This document shows positions 6,559 to 64,000 of a stretch of DNA of 64,000 nt, piece by piece. A program made the position numbers and the translations under genes. Positions within the stretch are counted from its first letter, which is position 1; each line of letters begins with the position of its first letter. The notes under the pieces were generated by a model. The model made no database searches, was not told the DNA's origin, and saw only the letters and a program-made list of their open reading frames with translations. The stretch spans positions 6,679 to 70,678 of the forward strand of contig PLUL01000071.1 of the NCBI GenBank assembly GCA_003164895.1. The letters are read 5' to 3'. Origin of the DNA: Bacteroidota bacterium (GTDB lineage Bacteria; Bacteroidota; Bacteroidia; Palsa-948).

Positions 6559-9264
6559 TTACTTCACCACGGTCACAGTTCCTATGTAATCATGCGTTGT
6601 ACCAAACACATTGAGAAAATGAACTTTCCAAACATAGACATCTTCATGAACAATTATGTTGGTTCCACCCGCCACGGTACCATTCCACATACATGGAAGC
6701 GATTGCGGTGGACCATTCACTTTGCAATTAAATAAAATATTTCCCCATCTGTCAAATATCCACATTTCGTATTCTGTAATACCTAAACCTTTTCCATAGA
6801 AAGAATCATTTATCCCATCTCCATTTGGTGTAAATGAATTTGGAATATAAAACATATAATCCTTTGTTTCTATCACATGCTTAATGCTATCCACGCATCC
6901 ATATTGTGATGTTACGATTTGCGTAACAATATATGTTCCTGTGTCTGCATATATATGTATTGGATTCTGCAATGTTGAAGTAACTGTATCTCCAAAATGC
7001 CATACCCATTGCACTCCTCCGGTAGAAAGATCATTAAATATTACATTATCCGTAATGGAAATTATCGATCCGGGTGAAGTAGAGAAACTAGGTTGAGGCA
7101 AAGGACGTACAATGGCTGCTTGTTGAAGAGAATTTGTACAACCCTGATTTGAAGTAAGAGTCAGGGTAACAGGATATGTTCCGTCAGATGCATATAAATG
7201 AGTAGGGTTTTGCAGTGTCGAAGAATTCCCATCGCCAAAATTCCAGTTCCAAGTTGTAATATTTCCTGATGGAATAAACGATGGGTCTGAAAAAATGGTT
7301 GTATCTCCTTTGCAAATTGCAACCGAACTGAAATTCACAACCGGAAGGGGATATACAGTAAGAGTAACCGCCGTAGTATCAACACATCCTCCGGAAGAAA
7401 CAATAAGAGCTGAAATATAATTCCCATAACTAGGATAAGTATGAGTTGGGTTTTTAAGTGTAGAAACATTTCCATCTCCAAATGACCAATTCCATTGCGT
7501 TGCAAAAGCCGATGAGTTATTAGTGAAAACAGTTGGAATGTTTTGACAAACATTTGTCGCAGTAAATGACGCAGTCGGAATAGGATTAACCAACACATTT
7601 AAATTAGTGAGGTTCTGACAGCCATTGTTTGAAGTTACGGTAAGCAAAACAGAATATGTTGCAGCATTAGTAAAAACATGGCAGGGGTTCTGAAGAGTGG
7701 AAATATTATTTGGACCTGAAGCTGCGTCTGCAAAATTCCAACCCCAACCCGTAATGCTTCCTGAAGATATAGTTGAAGAATCGTGGAAGCAAGTTTGGTT
7801 GCCAATGCAAACGGTGGGTGCAGAAAAATTTGCAACAGGTAAAGGATTTATTAACGCATTTGCCTTGATAGAATCTATGCAACCAAAATTATTGGTAACA
7901 ATAAATGATACATTGTATGTGCCGGAAGCATTGTAAGTGTGTGATGGGCTTTGAACGGTGGAAGTATTTCCATCGCCAAAATTCCATGCCCATTGCGTAG
8001 CGCCTCCGGTGGAATTATCTGTAAATGCTGTTGGATTATTAAAGCAAACAGTTGTTGAGCTAAAGTTAACCACTGGTGCAGGATTAACTGTTACAGTTTG
8101 TGTAGTAGTGTTTGTGCAACCGGGTGTATTCGCAACTGTAAGAGTTGCTGTATAACTTCCGGGTGCAGTATAAGTGTGAGTTGGATTTGGAGCTGTAGAA
8201 GTATTACTGGTAGAAGTTGGATCGCCAAAATCCCAATTCTGACTAATTGCACCGGTTGACGAATTTGTAAATTGTGTGGGTGTTGTATTAAAGCAAGTAG
8301 TATTTGCGCTGAAGATTGCCGTAGGTACCGGAAGAGGATTATAATATATTTCTATAAAACCATTTCCACCTGCAGTAGAAGTTCCTCCTCCAACCGCTGC
8401 CCCTGTAGGCAGATCAGGATCGGTATTATTACCTGGAGTTTGTCCATTTCCATTTAAAATAGTGGTATTAAATCCCGCAGAAAAATTTCCACCACCACCA
8501 CCACCACATGCACCGCAATCGCAACCTGATGCCACTCCTCCGCCCGTACCACCATTATATCCGCCGCCGCCGCCGCCGCCGCCGCCGCCATCTTGCCCAC
8601 CTTTATTTGCTCCCACTACGCCGAATGCATTGGGGCTTGCTCCGGTTAATCCGGGTGTGGTGCAAGAAGCACCGGCTGGATTTCCATCTACTCCGCCTCC
8701 GCCGCCGGTTGCCCCACTGCTAAACTGTCCGCCACCACTGCCTCCGCCTCCGCCGCCTGCTACTAGTAAAGGTGTAGCTCCATTGTATAAACCACTGCCA
8801 CCACCGCCTCCGCCACCTCCGCCCGAAGTTCCGGAGCCTCCCGCAGCACCACCGGCACCACCATCAAGAATTCCGCTGCCAAATCCTGCAGCTCCGCCAC
8901 CAGTCCAAGCCACATGATTACCTCCCGGTCCGGCTCCTCCTCCAATTATTATAGTTAAAACCTGCCCCGGCGTAACAGTTAAACTGCTTTGCACAAATGC
9001 ACCGGCTCCACCCACCGCACCAGCAAAATCATCAGCACCTCCGCCACTACCTCCACCACCCCATGCTTTAATGGTAATTGTGTCTGTGCAGGGAACAGTA
9101 TATGTTTGAGGAACACCTGTATAATTATATACTTGTTTTACCGGTTGGGCAAAAGTCATTGTACAAGCTGCAAACAAAAAATAACACAGTAAAAAATAAG
9201 AATAATTATTAAGCTTTGGCATTGTGTAATCGGGGGTTTTAAAATTATATTTTATATATCTCAA
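6559..9264 (-). CDS. T9SS-secreted cell-surface protein with an N-terminal glycine-rich domain, several PKD domains, and a C-terminal gliding-motility-associated (CHU_C, type-B) sorting domain
   Basis: 901 aa with a signal peptide. The first ~300 aa are extremely Gly-rich with interspersed hydrophobic strands (VQSSLTVTPGQVLTIIIGGGAGPGG...). About 7 PKD-type repeats carry WNFGDGN / WDFGDP motifs. C-terminus YMFYIPNSFTPNGDGINDSFYGKGLGITEYEMWIFDRWGNILF matches the CHU_C / gliding-motility C-terminal domain. Confidence 0.85.
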   Translation of the reverse strand: MRYIKYNFKTPDYTMPKLNNYSYFLLCYFLFAACTMTFAQPVKQVYNYTGVPQTYTVPCTDTITIKAWGGGGSGGGADDFAGAVGGAGAFVQSSLTVTPGQVLTIIIGGGAGPGGNHVAWTGGGAAGFGSGILDGGAGGAAGGSGTSGGGGGGGGGSGLYNGATPLLVAGGGGGGSGGGQFSSGATGGGGGVDGNPAGASCTTPGLTGASPNAFGVVGANKGGQDGGGGGGGGGGYNGGTGGGVASGCDCGACGGGGGGNFSAGFNTTILNGNGQTPGNNTDPDLPTGAAVGGGTSTAGGNGFIEIYYNPLPVPTAIFSANTTCFNTTPTQFTNSSTGAISQNWDFGDPTSTSNTSTAPNPTHTYTAPGSYTATLTVANTPGCTNTTTQTVTVNPAPVVNFSSTTVCFNNPTAFTDNSTGGATQWAWNFGDGNTSTVQSPSHTYNASGTYNVSFIVTNNFGCIDSIKANALINPLPVANFSAPTVCIGNQTCFHDSSTISSGSITGWGWNFADAASGPNNISTLQNPCHVFTNAATYSVLLTVTSNNGCQNLTNLNVLVNPIPTASFTATNVCQNIPTVFTNNSSAFATQWNWSFGDGNVSTLKNPTHTYPSYGNYISALIVSSGGCVDTTAVTLTVYPLPVVNFSSVAICKGDTTIFSDPSFIPSGNITTWNWNFGDGNSSTLQNPTHLYASDGTYPVTLTLTSNQGCTNSLQQAAIVRPLPQPSFSTSPGSIISITDNVIFNDLSTGGVQWVWHFGDTVTSTLQNPIHIYADTGTYIVTQIVTSQYGCVDSIKHVIETKDYMFYIPNSFTPNGDGINDSFYGKGLGITEYEMWIFDRWGNILFNCKVNGPPQSLPCMWNGTVAGGTNIIVHEDVYVWKVHFLNVFGTTHDYIGTVTVVK
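8561..8589. repeat. (CCG)n trinucleotide microsatellite (~9.5 units) inside the Gly-rich coding region
   Basis: ccgccgccgccgccgccgccgccgccgcc read directly. Encodes a poly-Gly run (GGGGGGGGG) on the minus strand. Neighbouring shorter CCA/CCG triplet runs. The antisense proline-rich ORF 8462..8917 is an artefact of this composition. Confidence 0.8.
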
Positions 9265-9561
9265 ACTTATTTTGTTTAGAAGTTAGGTTAATATTTCGCT
9301 ACAAAGTAACAAAAATTTATTCACTCAATAAAGAAGACGTAAATATTTGAAAAGGTTGCCTCTATTTAAATGAGGAAGCATCTTTTCAATTTTACTTTAC
9401 TCTGTCTTTTACGATAACAAATATCCTTGAATCTCCGAATGAAAATACCTTATTTTAACTCTAACACAGTTAATTGAACAGACTCATACATGAATAATGG
9501 ATAATTAATAATGGAAATCACATAATCAATTGGTCGTATCACATCGTAAGTTTATCATCAC

Positions 9562-9960
9562 GCATGGTCAACCCTACATCCGGTTTAATCAATTGATCGT
9601 ATAACTTAATCAATACATGATCTCATATGATCAACCTTGAATGTGTCATAATCAATACATCATTCTGCATAATCAACCTTGCATCTAACATGATGAATAC
9701 ATCATCGCGCATGATCAACCTTGCATCTGTCATAATCAATACTTCATTCCACATGATCAACCTTGCATCTAAAATGATCAATCTTCCATCTCACATGATG
9801 AATACATCATCACGCATGATCAATCTTGCATCTGGTATAATCAATTGATCCCATCATATCGTTAATACATCATATCACTTAGTTAACCCTGCATCCGGTT
9901 TAATCAATTGATCGTATAACTTGATCAATACATCATCTCACATGATCAATTAATGGTAGT
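9562..9960. repeat. Exactly phased array of 19 x 21-bp iteron-like tandem repeats with two alternating subtypes (effective 42-bp unit), GATC/TGATCA cores, and 63-bp terminal direct repeats
   Basis: Units begin at 9562, 9583, 9604 and so on to 9940, with no phase slip. Subtype A is catgatcaaccttgcatctnn. Subtype B is cat(a/g)atcaatac(a/t)tcatnnnn. About 11 GATC sites fall within 400 bp. A 10-bp palindrome ATCAATTGAT occurs at 9587, 9839 and 9902. The first three units (9562-9624) are nearly identical to units 9877-9939. Confidence 0.85.
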
Positions 9961-9998
9961 GTATGGAAATGTGTGAAAATTGTTTAAAGATGAATGCA

Positions 9999-12900
9999 TC
10001 ACCTCACAAGCTGCACAAAACCTTTATAGGTAGAGTCGGGCAGGGCATGTGCTTTTTTATCTACTTGTCCGGCTATTTTTACAATAAAATAATACACGCC
10101 ATCGGGCGCTTCTTCTCCGGCAGTGGTTTTGCCATCCCATCCGTTGTTGCGCTGGGTGGAGGTGAACATGAGTGTTCCCCATCGGTCAAATATTTGCAGG
10201 GAATATTTTTCGTACGGGCAAACTCCGGGTATGTAAAACATATCGTTTATTCCATCTCCGTTTGGCGAGAAAACATTGGGGATTAATTTTTTCTGAAAGC
10301 AGGGTTCGGATAAAACTATAATGGAATCAACGCCTTTGCATCCTGCCGTATCGTAAATGGCAAAGGTATAAACCATGGTATCGCCCAGTCCCATAATAAG
10401 CACCGAAGGACAATTGCTGCAGCTCAATCCGGTATCGGGGCTCCAGTGAAAATTATAAGGTGGCAAACCTCCGCTGTAATTTGTGGTAACGCTGATAATG
10501 CTATCCAACGGCACATGCACTATGTGCGGACCATTTATTGAAACATTTATCACATTGGTAACCGTAACAGAGCCGGTGAGATTGGTTGCCTTAATCTGGC
10601 AGAGACTACCATCGGGTAAGGTATTTCCAAGAGAAAGAACAGGATTGAAATTTCCAGGATTGGTGTAGATATGACAGGTATCTCCGCCAAGGGTATTTAC
10701 AACAATTCCGTCTCCGAAACTCCATTCAAAATACTGCGCATTAATACTGGTGGCATGAAAGCACACTTTAAGCGGATTGCATCCGGCAGTGGGAGCAAAG
10801 CTGAACGACCCAACAGGACCCGGCACCACAATAATGCTGTCGAGTATAAGTGAATCTGTACAACCTCCGGGATTTGTTACAGTGAGTGTAACATTATAAA
10901 CTCCCGGAAGAGTGTAAGTGTGTGTGGGGTTCTGAAGAGCAGAACTGGAACCGTCACCAAACAACCAATTCCAAGCTGAAACAAATCCCTGCGATGAATC
11001 TTTGAATGTTACTACAAGATTTCCGCATCCTACACTTAAAATTGTATCTCTAAAGTGAGCAGTGGGTTTGAGAATGCGAACTTTTTCTTTTATGGTGCTG
11101 TCGCATCCGTTTGTATCGCGCACCGTTAATATTACAGTATATAAACTGTCGTGCGAGTAGGTGTGAGTAATGCTGCTGATGGGATTATGTGTGGAATCAA
11201 TGCTGCCATCGCCAAAGTTCCATAAATAAGTTCCACCCACCACATTGGTGCCCGATGCATTAAATGTGAGCTGAATTCCTTTGCATGAAAAAGTATCTAC
11301 CGTAAAAGCAGGGTAGGGGAATGTGGCTTGAATGTAATTAGTTTTAACAATTGTTTTGGTGCATTGGTTGGTATCCTTCACCGTCATTGTTACGGAATAA
11401 ATTCCGGTAGATGTATAGGTGTGTGTGATAGAATCTTTGTGAGTGGTAAAGATGGGAGAACCATCGCCAAAATTCCATGTCCAAAGTACAAGCGCTGAAT
11501 CCGGAACCGACTTATCAGTAGAAGTGTCGTGAAAAGTTACTATCAGCGGACGGCACCCTGTAAGTTTGTTGGCATAAAAATAGGGATAAGGACCCAGCGC
11601 TCTAACCGTATCAATCACGGAGTTCTTGCACCCGTTCACATCGGTGATGATAAGTTTAACCGGATATTGCCCCGTAGCATTATAGGTATAGGCAGGATTT
11701 ACGATGATGGAAGTATCTGCCAGTGTGGATGGGTCGCCAAAGTTCCAGAACACAGAGTCTGCATCCTGTGAAGTGCTTGTAAAGTTTTCGGTGAACGGAT
11801 AACAACCGCTTGTATTTGCTACCGTGAAATTTGCAATAGGTTTTGCAATAACTAATGGACTGGAAATGGTATTAGAACATTTAGAAGAATAATTATATGC
11901 CGTGAGTGAAATTGTATATGGTCCTCTCACCAGATAGGTGTGAACAGGAGTTTTATTGTTCGATGTATCCACTTTCCCGTCTCCAAAATTCCAGACAAGA
12001 GAATCCGCACCTTCCGATGTGCTGGAGAAATGAACGGTAAAATAAGTTGTACAACTCAGCGTGAATGTAAATGCTGCTTTAGGCGGAAGTATCACCACCT
12101 TCTTTTTTATGGAAGTATCTGCACAGCCGTGATTGTAGGCGATCAAATATACTTTATACGTTCCGGTGTCGCCATAAACATAAATAGGATTTTGCATGAT
12201 GCTCGAACCGCCATCACCAAAACTCCAATGCCATCCAGTTACATTTCCGGTTGATGAATCAGAAAAAGTTACAGGTAATCCGTAACAAACTGTATCCTTC
12301 AATATTCCGAAATTGGCAACGGGAGTACTTCCCACTTTGATGCAATTTGCACAAATAAAAGAATCCACACATCCGCTTACAGTATGAATAATTAATTTCA
12401 CAGTATAAACTCCGGTGGCTGTATAAGTGTGAGAAGTTCCGGGAACAGTAAAAGTGGCATTGTTACCATCTCCATAATACCATTGATATGTTGCAATTGC
12501 GCTTAATGGACTGGTGCTAGTACTCAAAAAATTTACGGTGAGTGGAGCGCATCCGCTGTCAGGCGCATGAGTAAATCCTGCAATTGGAGGAGAAATCATG
12601 ATGAAACTATTCTTCCTGATGGTGTCTGAACAGGGTCCGCTGCTATTCGTTGCGATAAGAGAAACGGAATAAGTTCCGATGGCTGTGTAGGTGTGTGCAG
12701 GATTCTGAATATTGGAAGTCGGACTTCCATCGCCAAAGTTCCAAATATAATTTGTTGCTCCTGTAGAATTATTTGTGAAATGAACGTTGAACGGAACAGA
12801 ACATGCAATCATTGTATCGGCAACAAAATTTGCAACTGGAGTTTGGTTTACGGTAACAATTCCGGTAGTGGTGCCATTGCAACTTCCATTACTCGCGTTA

Positions 12901-13958
12901 AGTGTAACCGTGTAAGTGTTTGCGGCAGTATAAGTGTGGCTTGGACTGATTGCAGTGGAAGTTCCTGCATCGCCAAAATTCCAGCTTGCCGTTGTGGCAA
13001 TAGGAACAGAAGTATTATTGAATATTATTGGCTGACCAGTGCAGACAACGGTGGGAGTTGCAGCAAAACTTGCAACCATATTCTGAAGCAGAATGTAATT
13101 TGGTTTTACGAGCGAGTCAATGCATCCGTTCTGATTGACAACGAGCGTTACGGTGTAGGTTCCGTTTGCAGCATAAGTATGTGTGGGATTAGTGGATGTA
13201 GAATTGGATCCGTCACCAAAATGCCAGGTGTAAGTGGTATGGCCAATGGACGTTGAAGTATTTGTGAAAGTTACATTGAGCGGAGGTGTGCAGGCAAATA
13301 AAGGGGTAGCAGTAAATGCAACTGTTGGCATTGGAACAATCAAAATATTCTGAGTGATGGTACTTATGCATCCGTTGAGATCGGTAACAATTAAACTTAT
13401 TGGATAAAGCCCTTGAGTTGTGTAAGCATGAGAAGTAGAAGTTGTTGTTACGGTAGTTGCATTGCCATCACCAAAATCCCAATGCCAGGTGGCAATGGTA
13501 GCGCCTCCTGTAGAAATTACAGTTGCATCGGTAAAAGTTACAGTTTGCCCTATACAGGCAGTATCGGTACTCATTGTAAATCCGGCAGTGGGCGGATTGT
13601 AAACATTAATGTAATTTGTTTTTACAATTGTGCTGGTTGAAACTCCATCGGAAACAGTGAGTGTTACAGTCCATAATCCTGAAGAATAAATATCTCCTGG
13701 ATTTGGTATAATAGGAACGGGTCCATTACCCAAATTCCAGCTCCATGATGTAGGATTTCCTGTTGATAAATCAGTAAACGTAACATGAAGTGGAGCGCAT
13801 CCGGCAGTGGGTGTTGCAGAGAAAGAGGCAACAACTTGTGCGAAAACAGAATTACCACTCAATAGCCAAAAGCTGATAGCAAAAATTACAGCTTTCAACT
13901 TGTAGATTGAATTAATAAATCGCAACGTGTGTTTTGAGTAAAAATGTTTCAAGCACAA
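9999..13958 (-). CDS. giant T9SS-secreted adhesin-like protein: >=12 PKD domains plus a C-terminal gliding-motility-associated (CHU_C, type-B) sorting domain
   Basis: 1319 aa with a signal peptide. Repeated ~85-aa PKD units carry W(N/H)FGDG...Y.V.L.V motifs. C-terminus KKLIPNVFSPNGDGINDMFYIPGVCPYEKYSLQIFDRWGTLMF is the CHU_C domain. Confidence 0.88.
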   Translation of the reverse strand: MCLKHFYSKHTLRFINSIYKLKAVIFAISFWLLSGNSVFAQVVASFSATPTAGCAPLHVTFTDLSTGNPTSWSWNLGNGPVPIIPNPGDIYSSGLWTVTLTVSDGVSTSTIVKTNYINVYNPPTAGFTMSTDTACIGQTVTFTDATVISTGGATIATWHWDFGDGNATTVTTTSTSHAYTTQGLYPISLIVTDLNGCISTITQNILIVPMPTVAFTATPLFACTPPLNVTFTNTSTSIGHTTYTWHFGDGSNSTSTNPTHTYAANGTYTVTLVVNQNGCIDSLVKPNYILLQNMVASFAATPTVVCTGQPIIFNNTSVPIATTASWNFGDAGTSTAISPSHTYTAANTYTVTLNASNGSCNGTTTGIVTVNQTPVANFVADTMIACSVPFNVHFTNNSTGATNYIWNFGDGSPTSNIQNPAHTYTAIGTYSVSLIATNSSGPCSDTIRKNSFIMISPPIAGFTHAPDSGCAPLTVNFLSTSTSPLSAIATYQWYYGDGNNATFTVPGTSHTYTATGVYTVKLIIHTVSGCVDSFICANCIKVGSTPVANFGILKDTVCYGLPVTFSDSSTGNVTGWHWSFGDGGSSIMQNPIYVYGDTGTYKVYLIAYNHGCADTSIKKKVVILPPKAAFTFTLSCTTYFTVHFSSTSEGADSLVWNFGDGKVDTSNNKTPVHTYLVRGPYTISLTAYNYSSKCSNTISSPLVIAKPIANFTVANTSGCYPFTENFTSTSQDADSVFWNFGDPSTLADTSIIVNPAYTYNATGQYPVKLIITDVNGCKNSVIDTVRALGPYPYFYANKLTGCRPLIVTFHDTSTDKSVPDSALVLWTWNFGDGSPIFTTHKDSITHTYTSTGIYSVTMTVKDTNQCTKTIVKTNYIQATFPYPAFTVDTFSCKGIQLTFNASGTNVVGGTYLWNFGDGSIDSTHNPISSITHTYSHDSLYTVILTVRDTNGCDSTIKEKVRILKPTAHFRDTILSVGCGNLVVTFKDSSQGFVSAWNWLFGDGSSSALQNPTHTYTLPGVYNVTLTVTNPGGCTDSLILDSIIVVPGPVGSFSFAPTAGCNPLKVCFHATSINAQYFEWSFGDGIVVNTLGGDTCHIYTNPGNFNPVLSLGNTLPDGSLCQIKATNLTGSVTVTNVINVSINGPHIVHVPLDSIISVTTNYSGGLPPYNFHWSPDTGLSCSNCPSVLIMGLGDTMVYTFAIYDTAGCKGVDSIIVLSEPCFQKKLIPNVFSPNGDGINDMFYIPGVCPYEKYSLQIFDRWGTLMFTSTQRNNGWDGKTTAGEEAPDGVYYFIVKIAGQVDKKAHALPDSTYKGFVQLVR

Positions 13959-62535: not shown

Positions 62536-62611
62536 TGACCCATGGTGTAATTGGCAACACGACTGATTTTGGTTCAGTAGAGTCTAGGTTCGAGCCCTAG
62601 TGGGTCAACCA
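62536..62611 (+). tRNA. tRNA-Gln (anticodon UUG)
   Basis: Cloverleaf folded by hand. Acceptor TGACCCA / TGGGTCA (U1-A72, typical of bacterial tRNA-Gln). D-stem GTGT / ACAC with loop AATTGGCA. Anticodon stem ACTGA / TCAGT with loop TTTTGGT, giving anticodon TTG with U33 and G37. 5-nt variable loop. T-arm CTAGG-TTCGAGC-CCTAG. Discriminator A plus an encoded CCA. 76 nt. Confidence 0.85.
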
Positions 62612-64000
62612 AATAGGGGATGATGGTTTTTTAACCTCATCCCCTTTTTTATTTTTACCCTCCGCCTCCGCCAATTTCTTGTATTTAGCTATGAGAGAAT
62701 AAGGCGCAACTAAATTCATCTGGATTTTTTTATCCCTTAAAATTAGGTTCGAGCCGATTTTTTCGAGCAAAGATTTTTCACAGCAAAAATCTTTTGAAAA
62801 AGCGAGTGTTCCTGCAAGCTGTGCTGATTCTATCCAGTTTTTCATAGGTTCGAGCCGACTATTGCTCTTTTGCCCAAAGTCATCTTTTTGCTGTGAAAGA
62901 TTTGTTTTCAGCTTAATAAGTTCCTCTTTCTTTTTCAGATATATATCTTTTTCAATCGTCTCTTCAAGGAAAGCATTCACGAGTTTGTCTAATCTTTCTT
63001 CCGTGTCTTTAATTTTATTTTCAATGCTTTGGGCAAAAGAGATCAAGTTTTTTTGTTCTTCTCTTTCCAATTCTTCCACGTGGGCAAGCATCTCGTGTGC
63101 CCATCCATCCGGCAGGGCAACCGTTTTCAGCACGTCCCTTAATTGATTTTGCATTCGGTCTTCACGCAAATATCCTTGTGAACACTTACACTTTTTCTTT
63201 GTACATCGGTAGTAGCGGTAAGTGCCTCCATGCCCTTTTGCAAACTGAGCAGTTATGGAACAACCGCACTCACCGCACGTGAAGATTCCTGTTAATGCAA
63301 AATCATGTTTACTTTTTATTACTCTTGGTCTGGAACGAAGTTTAAATAATTTTTGGACGGCTTCAAAGGTTGCCCTGTCCACGATTGGTTCATATTTTCC
63401 CTCGAAAGATTCACCTTTGTATTTTATTATTCCTGTGTATAGCCAATTAGTAAATATCCAATGCATATGTGACAGACTTAATAAATTACCTGACTTACTT
63501 GCAATGCCAAAAAAACTCAGGCGTTGTCTTGCACTATCAAGAGAATGTTTTCCTTCGGCAAATTCTTTGAAAAGTTTTTTTATGACTTTTGATTTAACCG
63601 GATCGGGGTCTATGTTTCGTGTTTTAGGATTATTCAAATATCCGACTGGCGCTTTTCCAATCCACTCACCACGCCTGAGTTTTTGACGAACGCCCCGCTT
63701 TACATTCTCTGATAAATTGTCCGAGTAATATTTGCTTTGTCCAAAGGCAACTTGCAACATGAACAACCCCTGCGGTGTTGGTTCAAACCAAAAAGTAGAA
63801 AACTTTAGTCCGCAAATCTTTTTAAGGTCAATGAGGTAAATAATTTGCCCTCCGTCTATGGAATTGCGCGCGAGCCTGTCAGGATGCCAAGCTAATATAC
63901 TGACAGGCTCTTTGCTTGCATATATCTTCTCTATCATGCGGGCAAATTCTTTACGGCCCGGAATTTTTGCGCTTTTGCTTTCTATAAAAGTTTCTGCTAT
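62597..64000 (-). CDS. large serine recombinase (resolvase/invertase-type catalytic domain, recombinase domain, zinc-ribbon); N-terminus beyond the window end
   Basis: In-frame translation continues past the ORF-track Met to the window edge: ...IPGRKEFARMIEKIYASKEPVSILAWHPDRLARN is the serine-recombinase catalytic-domain motif. Downstream, a Cys cluster (FTCGECGCSITAQ...YRYYRCTKKKC) forms the zinc ribbon, followed by a C-terminal coiled coil. The 3' end, including the stop, overlaps the terminator and 3' end of tRNA-Gln. Confidence 0.85.
   Translation of the reverse strand: MAETFIESKSAKIPGRKEFARMIEKIYASKEPVSILAWHPDRLARNSIDGGQIIYLIDLKKICGLKFSTFWFEPTPQGLFMLQVAFGQSKYYSDNLSENVKRGVRQKLRRGEWIGKAPVGYLNNPKTRNIDPDPVKSKVIKKLFKEFAEGKHSLDSARQRLSFFGIASKSGNLLSLSHMHWIFTNWLYTGIIKYKGESFEGKYEPIVDRATFEAVQKLFKLRSRPRVIKSKHDFALTGIFTCGECGCSITAQFAKGHGGTYRYYRCTKKKCKCSQGYLREDRMQNQLRDVLKTVALPDGWAHEMLAHVEELEREEQKNLISFAQSIENKIKDTEERLDKLVNAFLEETIEKDIYLKKKEELIKLKTNLSQQKDDFGQKSNSRLEPMKNWIESAQLAGTLAFSKDFCCEKSLLEKIGSNLILRDKKIQMNLVAPYSLIAKYKKLAEAEGKNKKGDEVKKPSSPIWLTH
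62597..64000. mobile_element. left end of an integrated genetic element (serine-recombinase-mediated) inserted at the 3' end of tRNA-Gln; the rest lies outside the window
   Basis: The recombinase gene abuts and overlaps the tRNA 3' end, which is the classic tRNA-targeted island junction. Everything to the left is conserved housekeeping/core-like sequence. Confidence 0.5.
62615..62656 (+). terminator. Rho-independent terminator downstream of tRNA-Gln
   Basis: 9-bp stem AGGGGATGA / TCATCCCCT with a 13-nt loop, followed by TTTTTTATTTTT. Confidence 0.6.

Follow-up and report, generated by a model that had tools for sequence, protein, structure and literature searches.

A 64-kb stretch of the chromosome of a Bacteroidota bacterium (GenBank assembly GCA_003164895.1, contig PLUL01000071.1; hereafter the window) carries an intergenic array of 21-bp direct repeats between two genes for adhesins of the type IX secretion system (T9SS). 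We found that this array keeps an unbroken register over 21 units, that its units are nested in 42- and 63-bp orders and that arrays of the same period, with unrelated sequences, lie beside T9SS genes in related genomes. The reading we favor, at a probability of roughly 40%, is that the array is a minisatellite made by recombination whose two-turn phase has been kept since each unit is a putative protein-binding site on one face of the DNA.

A first-pass annotation of the window had described 19 exactly phased units. When the plus strand was set in 21-bp rows from position 9478, the register proved unbroken over 9520-9960. The exact phasing without slips thus held, and the count did not, as two degenerate units at 9520 and 9541 precede the 19 that start at 9562. 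The parts of the array are as follows.

9520..9960, no strand: whole array, 21 tandem units of exactly 21 bp each, subtypes A, B and C, no insertions or deletions (indels)
9625..9834: central and most homogeneous part, A-B alternation with a 42-bp higher-order unit and an extra A at 9772
9520..9645: left six-unit block, C B A C B A, partner of 9835-9960 at a 315-bp offset
9835..9960: right six-unit block, C B A C B C, partner of 9520-9645
9588..9597, 9840-9849 and 9903-9912: 10-bp palindrome ATCAATTGAT in the C unit, the only three copies in the window

Three subtypes of unit are present, A (GCATGATCAACCTTGCATCTG, eight units), B (ACATAATCAATACATCATCTC, eight units) and C (GTTTAATCAATTGATCGTATA, five units), arranged in the order C B, A C B, A B, A B, A B, A A B, A C B, A C B, C. 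The two alternating subtypes with a 42-bp period that had been proposed earlier describe the A-B center of the array and not the whole, in which three subtypes form a 63/42-bp hierarchy. Identity is 72-75% inside a subtype and 47-57% across subtypes, and although units differ by substitution at 25-53% of positions, there are no indels in any of the 21. Searches with subtype motifs gave 7 and 6 matches, all within the array, where shuffled sequences lead one to expect 0.22 and 0.56.

Within the unit, positions T4, T7 and A9 are invariant, and A10, C16 and T18 almost so. A, B and C have in common a core, cATnATCAAy (ATNATCAAY), which is followed by variable positions 11-15 and then by a short CAT(C). 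An alignment of A with B units shows mismatches at positions 1, 5, 11-15 and 21 and matches everywhere else, and its longest mismatch run is 5 (permutation p=0.047). The conserved TGATCAA core announced by the first-pass annotation is thus real as a shared core, though its GATC does not run throughout: the core reads GATC in 10 of 21 units and AATC in 9. TGATCAA itself occurs 7 times in the array and 11 times in the whole window. The clustering of about 11 GATC sites and the occurrence of a 10-bp palindrome in three units had both been recognized correctly; the GATC sites number 11 and lie between 9595 and 9944. Their density over the 441 bp of the array is 25 per kb, an enrichment of about 13-fold, and the rest of the window has fewer GATC sites than expected (122 against 225, an observed/expected ratio (O/E) of 0.54). 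Elsewhere in the base composition, GGCC is nearly missing from the window (7 observed versus 69 expected) and CTAG has an O/E of 0.37. The depletion of GGCC, CTAG and GATC suggests restriction-modification pressure on these sites.

The units are nested in a higher order. Tandem Repeats Finder (TRF) called the array at periods of 21, 42, 63 and 84, and on its center gave a period of 42 with 4.6 copies and 79% matches. The 42-bp A-B order occupies the center, and a 63-bp A-C-B order is found at both ends. The inner A-C-B triplet at 9562-9624 matches 9877-9939 at 56 of 63 positions, as had been noticed for the first 63 bp of the array as then delimited, and the likeness extends to the six-unit blocks, in which 9520-9645 and 9835-9960 are identical at 96 of 126 positions. 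This nested structure shows that the array was built by unequal recombination or slippage. Most simply, a 42-bp sub-array would have expanded within an older array of 63-bp order. The longest exact repeat inside the array is 31 bp, so an assembly at k=141 had no reason to collapse or invent it. The window corresponds to the ENA metagenome contig ERZ27254241 k141_255138 (71.7 kb). The same organism is also represented by a second metagenome-assembled genome (MAG), GCA_003168055.1, and by several Logan and ENA assemblies; most independent assemblies break in the Gly-rich region of the neighboring adhesin gene, not at the 21-bp array.

Arrays of the same period recur in related genomes. We compared nine loci totaling 233 kb, including the 64-kb window and about 170 kb from related Bacteroidota MAGs, and counted as strong any tandem array with a TRF score above 100. 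Five arrays were strong, the one in the window and four others, likewise intergenic, and all five have a base period of 21; the remaining repeats were tiny (periods 14-15, scores of at most 53). The four arrays in relatives (MAGs GCA_016213405.1 and GCA_016195025.1) are exactly phased and all flank genes for T9SS cargo proteins.

L087, 7521-7745: alternation of AAAGCCAGATTAACCAAACGG and ATAGCCAGCTAACCAGCTTGA over about 10 units, in the spacer between two Por_Secre_tail genes, with its end 65 bp short of the next ATG
L089, 14492-14848: AACGCTGACGATTGCCGTACC alternating with AACGGTGACGTGGTTGGTACG, about 16 units, about 100 bp past the stop of a gene for a 1462-aa PKD/CHU_C adhesin
L082, 4898-4974: ATGTACATACATCGCTCTCTT, 3.7 copies, between two CHU_C genes
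L082, 18638-18746: second array, TCCTCACGAGCGGAGGAGTGT, 4-5 copies, 520 bp upstream of a SprB/PKD/CHU_C gene

Alternation of two subtypes at 42 bp was seen in two of these four arrays (L087 and L089), and their autocorrelation resembles that of the window array, with an identity of about 0.55-0.62 at lag 21 and a higher one at lag 42. The unit sequences of the five arrays are unrelated and range in GC content from 34% to 64%. Three of the relatives' arrays come from one MAG, so descent from a single element family does not account for the common period. The two L089 subtypes differ from each other within one contiguous block, where the mismatch run reaches 6 (p=0.010), and the footprint of conserved and variable positions agrees between the window's A/B pair and the L089 pair at 19 of 21 positions (p=0.02 after allowing for all rotations and both orientations). 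Among the control loci, prokaryotic arrays unconnected with our search pattern had periods of 10, 12, 14, 15, 18, 45, 48 and 75, and never 21. A spacing that recurs at 21 bp with differing sequences hints at a protein-binding scaffold rather than an accident. It indirectly strengthens the suggestion of the first-pass annotation that the array may be a platform for a regulator or nucleoid protein.

The array of the window lies in the following setting.

9999..13862, minus strand: upstream T9SS adhesin gene, 1287 aa as called, with 12 PKD domains and a CHU_C sorting domain
6559..9222, minus strand: downstream T9SS adhesin gene, 887 aa, with a signal peptide, a Gly-rich region, PKD domains and CHU_C
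9334..9361, minus strand: motif AGGCAACCTTTT-N10-CGTCTT, resembling a promoter for an extracytoplasmic-function (ECF) sigma factor, between the array and the start of the 887-aa gene and outside the repeat
9262-9269, minus strand: candidate Bacteroidetes-type -7 box TAAGTTTG
9302-9309, minus strand: candidate Bacteroidetes-type -7 box TTACTTTG
L029 877-905 and 5350-5378, and L082 19002-19030: further sites of the form AGGCAACCTTTT-N10/11-CGTCTT

Placement between two T9SS adhesin genes had been stated correctly, and the protein lengths of 1319 and 901 aa given for them became 1287 and 887 aa when the starts were corrected. The stop of the 1287-aa gene, at 9999, is 39 bp from the array, and no intrinsic terminator or terminator-like hairpin was found between the two. 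On the other side, the ATG of the 887-aa gene (9222) is 298 bp from the proximal end, which places the array about 300-740 bp upstream of this ATG. The promoter region in between is conserved with homologous adhesin genes in other genomes, and GTTACTTTGTA, at about 9300-9310, is conserved in L028 and L029. Counted from the ECF-like -35 element, the array runs from roughly -160 to -600 and so lies upstream of this conserved promoter; no TAnnTTTG promoter box was found within it. Sites of the form AGGCAACCTTTT-N10/11-CGTCTT lie upstream of four PKD/SprB/CHU_C adhesin genes in three genomes. Their layout, AAC, about 15-16 nt and CGTC, makes the site at 9334-9361 a candidate ECF-sigma-like promoter element, and suggests that the adhesins with this motif may share an ECF-dependent promoter. 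The wider surroundings, from Pfam annotation of the window, are those of an ordinary Bacteroidota chromosome (pepT, a histidine kinase, iPGM, a flippase, dUTPase and TonB-dependent receptors), with many further T9SS cargo genes; the sole response regulator in the window is of NarL type and lies at 43.5 kb. The Gly-rich N-terminal region of the 887-aa adhesin (8480-8760) shows triplet repeats of CCA, CCG and GCC type on the plus strand.

We propose that a lineage-specific intergenic minisatellite would have been built here by repeated unequal recombination or slippage, with the 63-bp A-C-B array arising first and the 42-bp A-B sub-array expanding within it later. The exact register of 21 bp, two helical turns, was probably maintained because each unit is one binding site, in which the candidate elements are the conserved core of about 10 bp, the variable block and the short second element CAT(C). 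Twenty-one such sites, all facing the same side of the helix, could be occupied cooperatively by a sequence-specific protein. The platform would directly follow one T9SS adhesin gene and precede, by 160-600 bp, the ECF-like and sigma-A-like promoter elements of the next, the 887-aa gene, whose transcription it would likely tune or insulate. We infer selection on the phase, protein binding and any effect on expression from the absence of indels despite heavy substitution, the layout of core plus variable block, and a 21-bp period that recurs while the sequence is free. Direct repeats spaced about 21 bp from center to center are known from iterons, from LytTR operators (9-bp repeats with 12-bp spacers) and from AraC half-sites (17 + 4 bp), and paralogous proteins that bind direct repeats recognize different sequences with the same spacing. 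Different paralogues reading different sequences would explain why unrelated arrays have one period.

Several results weigh against this protein-site reading. The conserved core was not significantly depleted in recent substitutions within subtypes (13% versus 18%, p=0.19), the L087 array does not show the footprint common to the window and L089 (p about 0.9), and the annotation of the window showed no LytTR or AraC gene, and no Rep gene near the array. The sample of relatives is small, and its focus on adhesin genes biases the association with T9SS genes. No array was found upstream of the closest homologues of the 887-aa adhesin (L028, L029-31 and L084-86), where spacers of 187-270 bp carry the conserved promoter; the array is thus dispensable for this adhesin family. 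A wedge model of DNA curvature gave no signal across the class, as the arrays were no more curved than column-permuted periodic controls. We had considered intrinsic curvature as a selected property in its own right and rejected it: the window and L089 arrays were predicted to be curved, L087 and the second L082 array were not, and none exceeded the permuted controls, a result that is indicative only.

By sequence, the array appears to be an orphan, confined as far as visible to one species and lying in a variable adhesin island. There is no second copy elsewhere in the 64-kb window. A degenerate two-unit pattern, which matches the window array 8 times, found no member of the family in 185,579 species-representative genomes of GTDB; it returned 13 loci with a single match each, roughly as many as chance would give. 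None belonged to the A/B/C family, and several, L018, L019 and L024 among them, proved to lie in 21-bp arrays of unrelated sequence. In JGI metagenomes the same pattern retrieved only unrelated 21-bp arrays, namely an apparently eukaryotic satellite and arrays upstream of an operon for bacteriophage exclusion (BREX). The 21-mer family, whose dispersal as a generic intergenic repeat the first-pass annotation had asked about, is in this way absent from the window, the GTDB representatives and the JGI metagenomes. No similarity was found among 72,556 plasmids and 50,697 phages, and six-frame translation, with stops as X, found no homologue among 5.8 billion protein clusters. A dispersed family carried by viral contigs was also considered and dropped, as a 17-mer scan gave 13 single chance matches. 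Exact sequences of the spurious open reading frames (ORFs) called inside the L089 and L082 arrays were absent from the protein collection in a search for copy-number variants. At homologous loci, the closest relatives of the 887-aa adhesin have identities of 72% (L028), 68% (L029), 53% (L084) and 55% (L086), and in relatives whose pepT is 86-87% identical (L080 and L082) other genes lie upstream and the adhesin pair is not beside pepT. In the literature on Bacteroidota we found only two classes of intergenic repeat to set beside a 21-bp one, BrickBuilt and the TAACTGA heptamer repeats.

A functionless minisatellite, or variable number tandem repeat (VNTR), is almost as likely as a protein-binding platform. 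Slippage and unequal crossing-over in the long, weakly constrained spacer of a fast-evolving adhesin island would have produced it, the founding unit would have supplied the core/spacer pattern and exact phase, and 21 bp would recur through mutational bias or the luck of a small sample. The orphan status of the sequence in genomes, metagenomes, plasmids, phages and protein space fits such an origin, as do the absence of the array from homologous adhesin loci and of the adhesin pair from beside pepT in relatives, the unremarkable substitution rate of the core, and the nested 63/42-bp hierarchy with its center more homogeneous than the edges, a typical outcome of neutral array turnover. It leaves unexplained the 21-bp base period of all five strong arrays in the clade sample, with their unrelated units, the absence of indels despite heavy substitution and the blocked rather than scattered differences between subtypes. 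Far less probable is a switch sensitive to GATC methylation, in which a Dam-type methylase and a regulator would compete at the 11 sites to set heritable ON and OFF states of the adhesin. In known switches of this type, pap and agn43, the promoter is overlapped by Lrp or OxyR sites in which 2-3 GATC sites are embedded. The array resembles them in its cluster of GATC upstream of an adhesin gene, strongly enriched over GATC-depleted surroundings, and a GATC at a fixed position of the unit would present the sites on one helical face. It differs from them in that half of its units do not have the G, the least conserved position of the core, that its sites lie far upstream, at least 225 bp from the promoter boxes (9262-9361) and without overlap, and that the genome is otherwise poor in GATC, an avoidance that probably fits restriction pressure better than regulatory use of Dam. 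No methylase gene was found in the annotation of the window, and we know of no Dam gene in this organism. The sister arrays L087 and L089 contain no GATC, so the cluster is specific to the window array and not to the array class. With the array standing about 160 bp upstream of promoter-like elements, GATC methylation, which the first-pass annotation had put forward, is not supported as the organizing principle.

An internal minisatellite of a non-autonomous mobile element is also improbable, and this reading is already weakened. Its model is BrickBuilt, a Porphyromonas gingivalis MITE (miniature inverted-repeat transposable element), whose 23-nt tandem repeats have a leader on one side, a tail on the other and IS5-like inverted ends (Klein et al. 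2015, PMC4596501). BrickBuilt has about 19 dispersed copies per genome, is restricted to its species and often lies beside genes for T9SS cargo (PorSS CTD proteins); its arrays reach 22.8 units, have indels of up to 6% and show promoter activity (PMC4596501). It is the nearest described element to ours, being likewise made of spacer-less, head-to-tail intergenic units of about 22 nt in the same phylum; its units are of similar length (23 nt, ours 21) and similar number (up to 22.8, ours 21), and the two also agree in a strictly intergenic place adjoining T9SS cargo genes and in the mixture of conserved and variable unit positions. Unlike BrickBuilt, the array has three interleaved subtypes and not a single indel. 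A search of 9330-10080 for terminal inverted repeats found only the palindromic cores of the array itself, the IS5-type end GAGACCTTTGCA is absent from the window even at up to 2 mismatches, and no -7 box of the TAnnTTTG type lies inside the array. Only one copy is present in the 64 kb and none in the GTDB representatives or JGI metagenome contigs, a comparison to be read with the tendency of MAGs to lose repeats. That the repeats are iterons of an origin or partition site, whether a chromosomal oriC, an integrated replicon or a centromere-like site, is scarcely credible. Replicon iterons, such as the seven 22-bp repeats of R6K gamma-ori and the 19-bp repeats of P1, are 17-22 bp long and about two turns apart, occur usually in 3-9 copies and adjoin a rep gene, an AT-rich unwinding element and DnaA boxes. 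The array shares with them direct repeats that set a core in a less conserved frame and phase it on one face, and cumulative GC skew has its minimum at about 9-11 kb, with a switch of gene orientation at about 14.1 kb. (Genes left of about 14.0 kb are all on the minus strand, and those at about 14.2-21 kb on the plus strand.) Skew inside the adhesin genes is, however, dominated by Gly and PKD codon composition; no TTATCCACA DnaA box with up to 1 mismatch lies between 6764 and 13761, none is within 3 kb of the array, and the 11 one-mismatch boxes in 64 kb, where about 20 are expected, form no cluster. An AT-rich unwinding element does not accompany the array either. Nor were rep, par or dnaA genes found in the window, whose context is one of housekeeping genes without plasmid or phage similarity, and a single related MAG holds several arrays with different units. 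The array, chromosomal and 21 copies long, has the geometry of iterons and is not a replicon iteron, so the description "iteron-like" in the first-pass annotation applies in the first sense only. IHF sites were looked for in the array as well, and WATCAANNNNTTR does not occur there. We give equally little credence to a transcribed element, either a small protein of 7-aa repeats or an RNA, structured or acting as a sponge, in the 3' untranslated region of the upstream adhesin mRNA. The plus-strand ORF 9627-9848 is open across A and B units, and no terminator intervenes between the upstream stop codon and the array. Against this, the six-frame pseudo-protein has no homologue, the gene caller predicts no gene in the array on the source contig, codon periodicity is absent from the substitutions, folding gave z-scores of -1.0 and -0.5, and neither gathering thresholds nor E<=1 yielded an Rfam match. 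The protein and structured-RNA versions are largely refuted, in keeping with the earlier dismissal of this ORF as an artefact of translating the repeat.

The array can also be set beside other known systems. A CRISPR (clustered regularly interspaced short palindromic repeats) locus was rejected, as it had been from the start: the units abut without spacers and every subtype recurs. Operators of LytTR and AraC type resemble the arrays in being spaced 21 bp from center to center, with a core of about 9-10 bp and then a degenerate spacer. Known operators of these types have 2-3 sites that abut the -35 region; the arrays, unlike them, have 10-21 sites hundreds of bp upstream, that of the window ending about 160 bp upstream of the ECF-like -35, and no such regulator is encoded beside any of them. 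Long tandem arrays are also formed by sopC of the F plasmid, with 12 protein-binding units of 43 bp, and by repetitive extragenic palindromes (REP) and bacterial interspersed mosaic elements (BIMEs), the latter sitting just past stop codons and alternating two unit types. Among our arrays L089, with alternating inverted 6-9-mers, resembles a BIME, whereas the window array has no par genes and no stable hairpins, only palindromes of 6-10 bp and a folding z of about -1. Because CGTACC and GGTACG alternate at the ends of its units, L089 has a BIME-like potential to form hairpins. Contingency loci likewise carry tandem repeats, with copy number changeable by slippage, upstream of surface-adhesin genes, as in the 7-bp repeats of Haemophilus influenzae hmw1A/hmw2A and the uspA repeats of Moraxella catarrhalis (PMC4679880). 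Their units of 1-7 bp lie between promoter and start codon or in promoter spacers, and copy changes shift spacing or helical phase (PMC4679880). The window array differs in lying upstream of the promoter region and in a 21-bp unit that leaves helical phase unchanged.

These comparisons lead to a broader proposal, which we think unlikely as it stands: a lineage class of 21-bp-phased minisatellites near T9SS genes that would load LytTR/AraC-like regulators and whose number of sites would be tuned in steps of 21 bp. In such a class the sequence may be free and the architecture fixed, often with a 42- or 63-bp multi-subtype order, in spacers flanking T9SS adhesin and cargo genes; by analogy with the known binders, each array may be a multi-site platform for a different paralogue of a regulator family that binds direct repeats. 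The array taken by itself is a bacterial intergenic minisatellite, a known kind of element, and one more orphan; what is possibly new is the phase-constrained, sequence-free 21/42/63-bp architecture beside T9SS genes, and it is this recurrence that makes it worth following up. If the recurrence holds in an unbiased census, the period itself would be under constraint. A true platform would be an undescribed way for environmental Bacteroidota to build large, evolvable protein-loading sites beside surface-adhesin genes. Copy number could then act as a dial of adhesin expression that does not disturb helical phasing, a phase-preserving contingency locus. If the recurrence fails, the array would be useful only as a VNTR for strain typing and as a caution in annotating ORFs derived from repeats.

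Other 21-bp arrays came to light in these searches. On sediment-metagenome contigs, two arrays of the unit AGATGATGAATATCGCATAAA (L062 12-200 and 495-660, also in L060 and L070) stand on either side of some 300 bp of DNA and lie 0.5-1 kb upstream of BrxA/BrxB/BrxC, a BREX defence operon. Near gyrA, a contig from Erysipelotrichaceae has 13 exactly phased 21-bp units of two families with a common AAAWTATTYTC core (L019 94-366) and a second, unrelated 21-bp array at 514-618; L019 is again a conserved core with a variable remainder at 21 bp. The abundant 21-bp satellite CATAATGAATGAGTCATGTCA, set among long (TG)n tracts (L033, L048, L054, L055, L057 and L066; JGI Ga0105051-53, Ga0335396/8 and Ga0209390), is apparently eukaryotic and was retrieved because it matches the degenerate search pattern. 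At the far end of the window, a tRNA-Gln adjoins a gene for a large serine recombinase (Resolvase, Recombinase and Zn_ribbon_recom domains; 62536-63937), and the pair is probably the edge of an integrated element.

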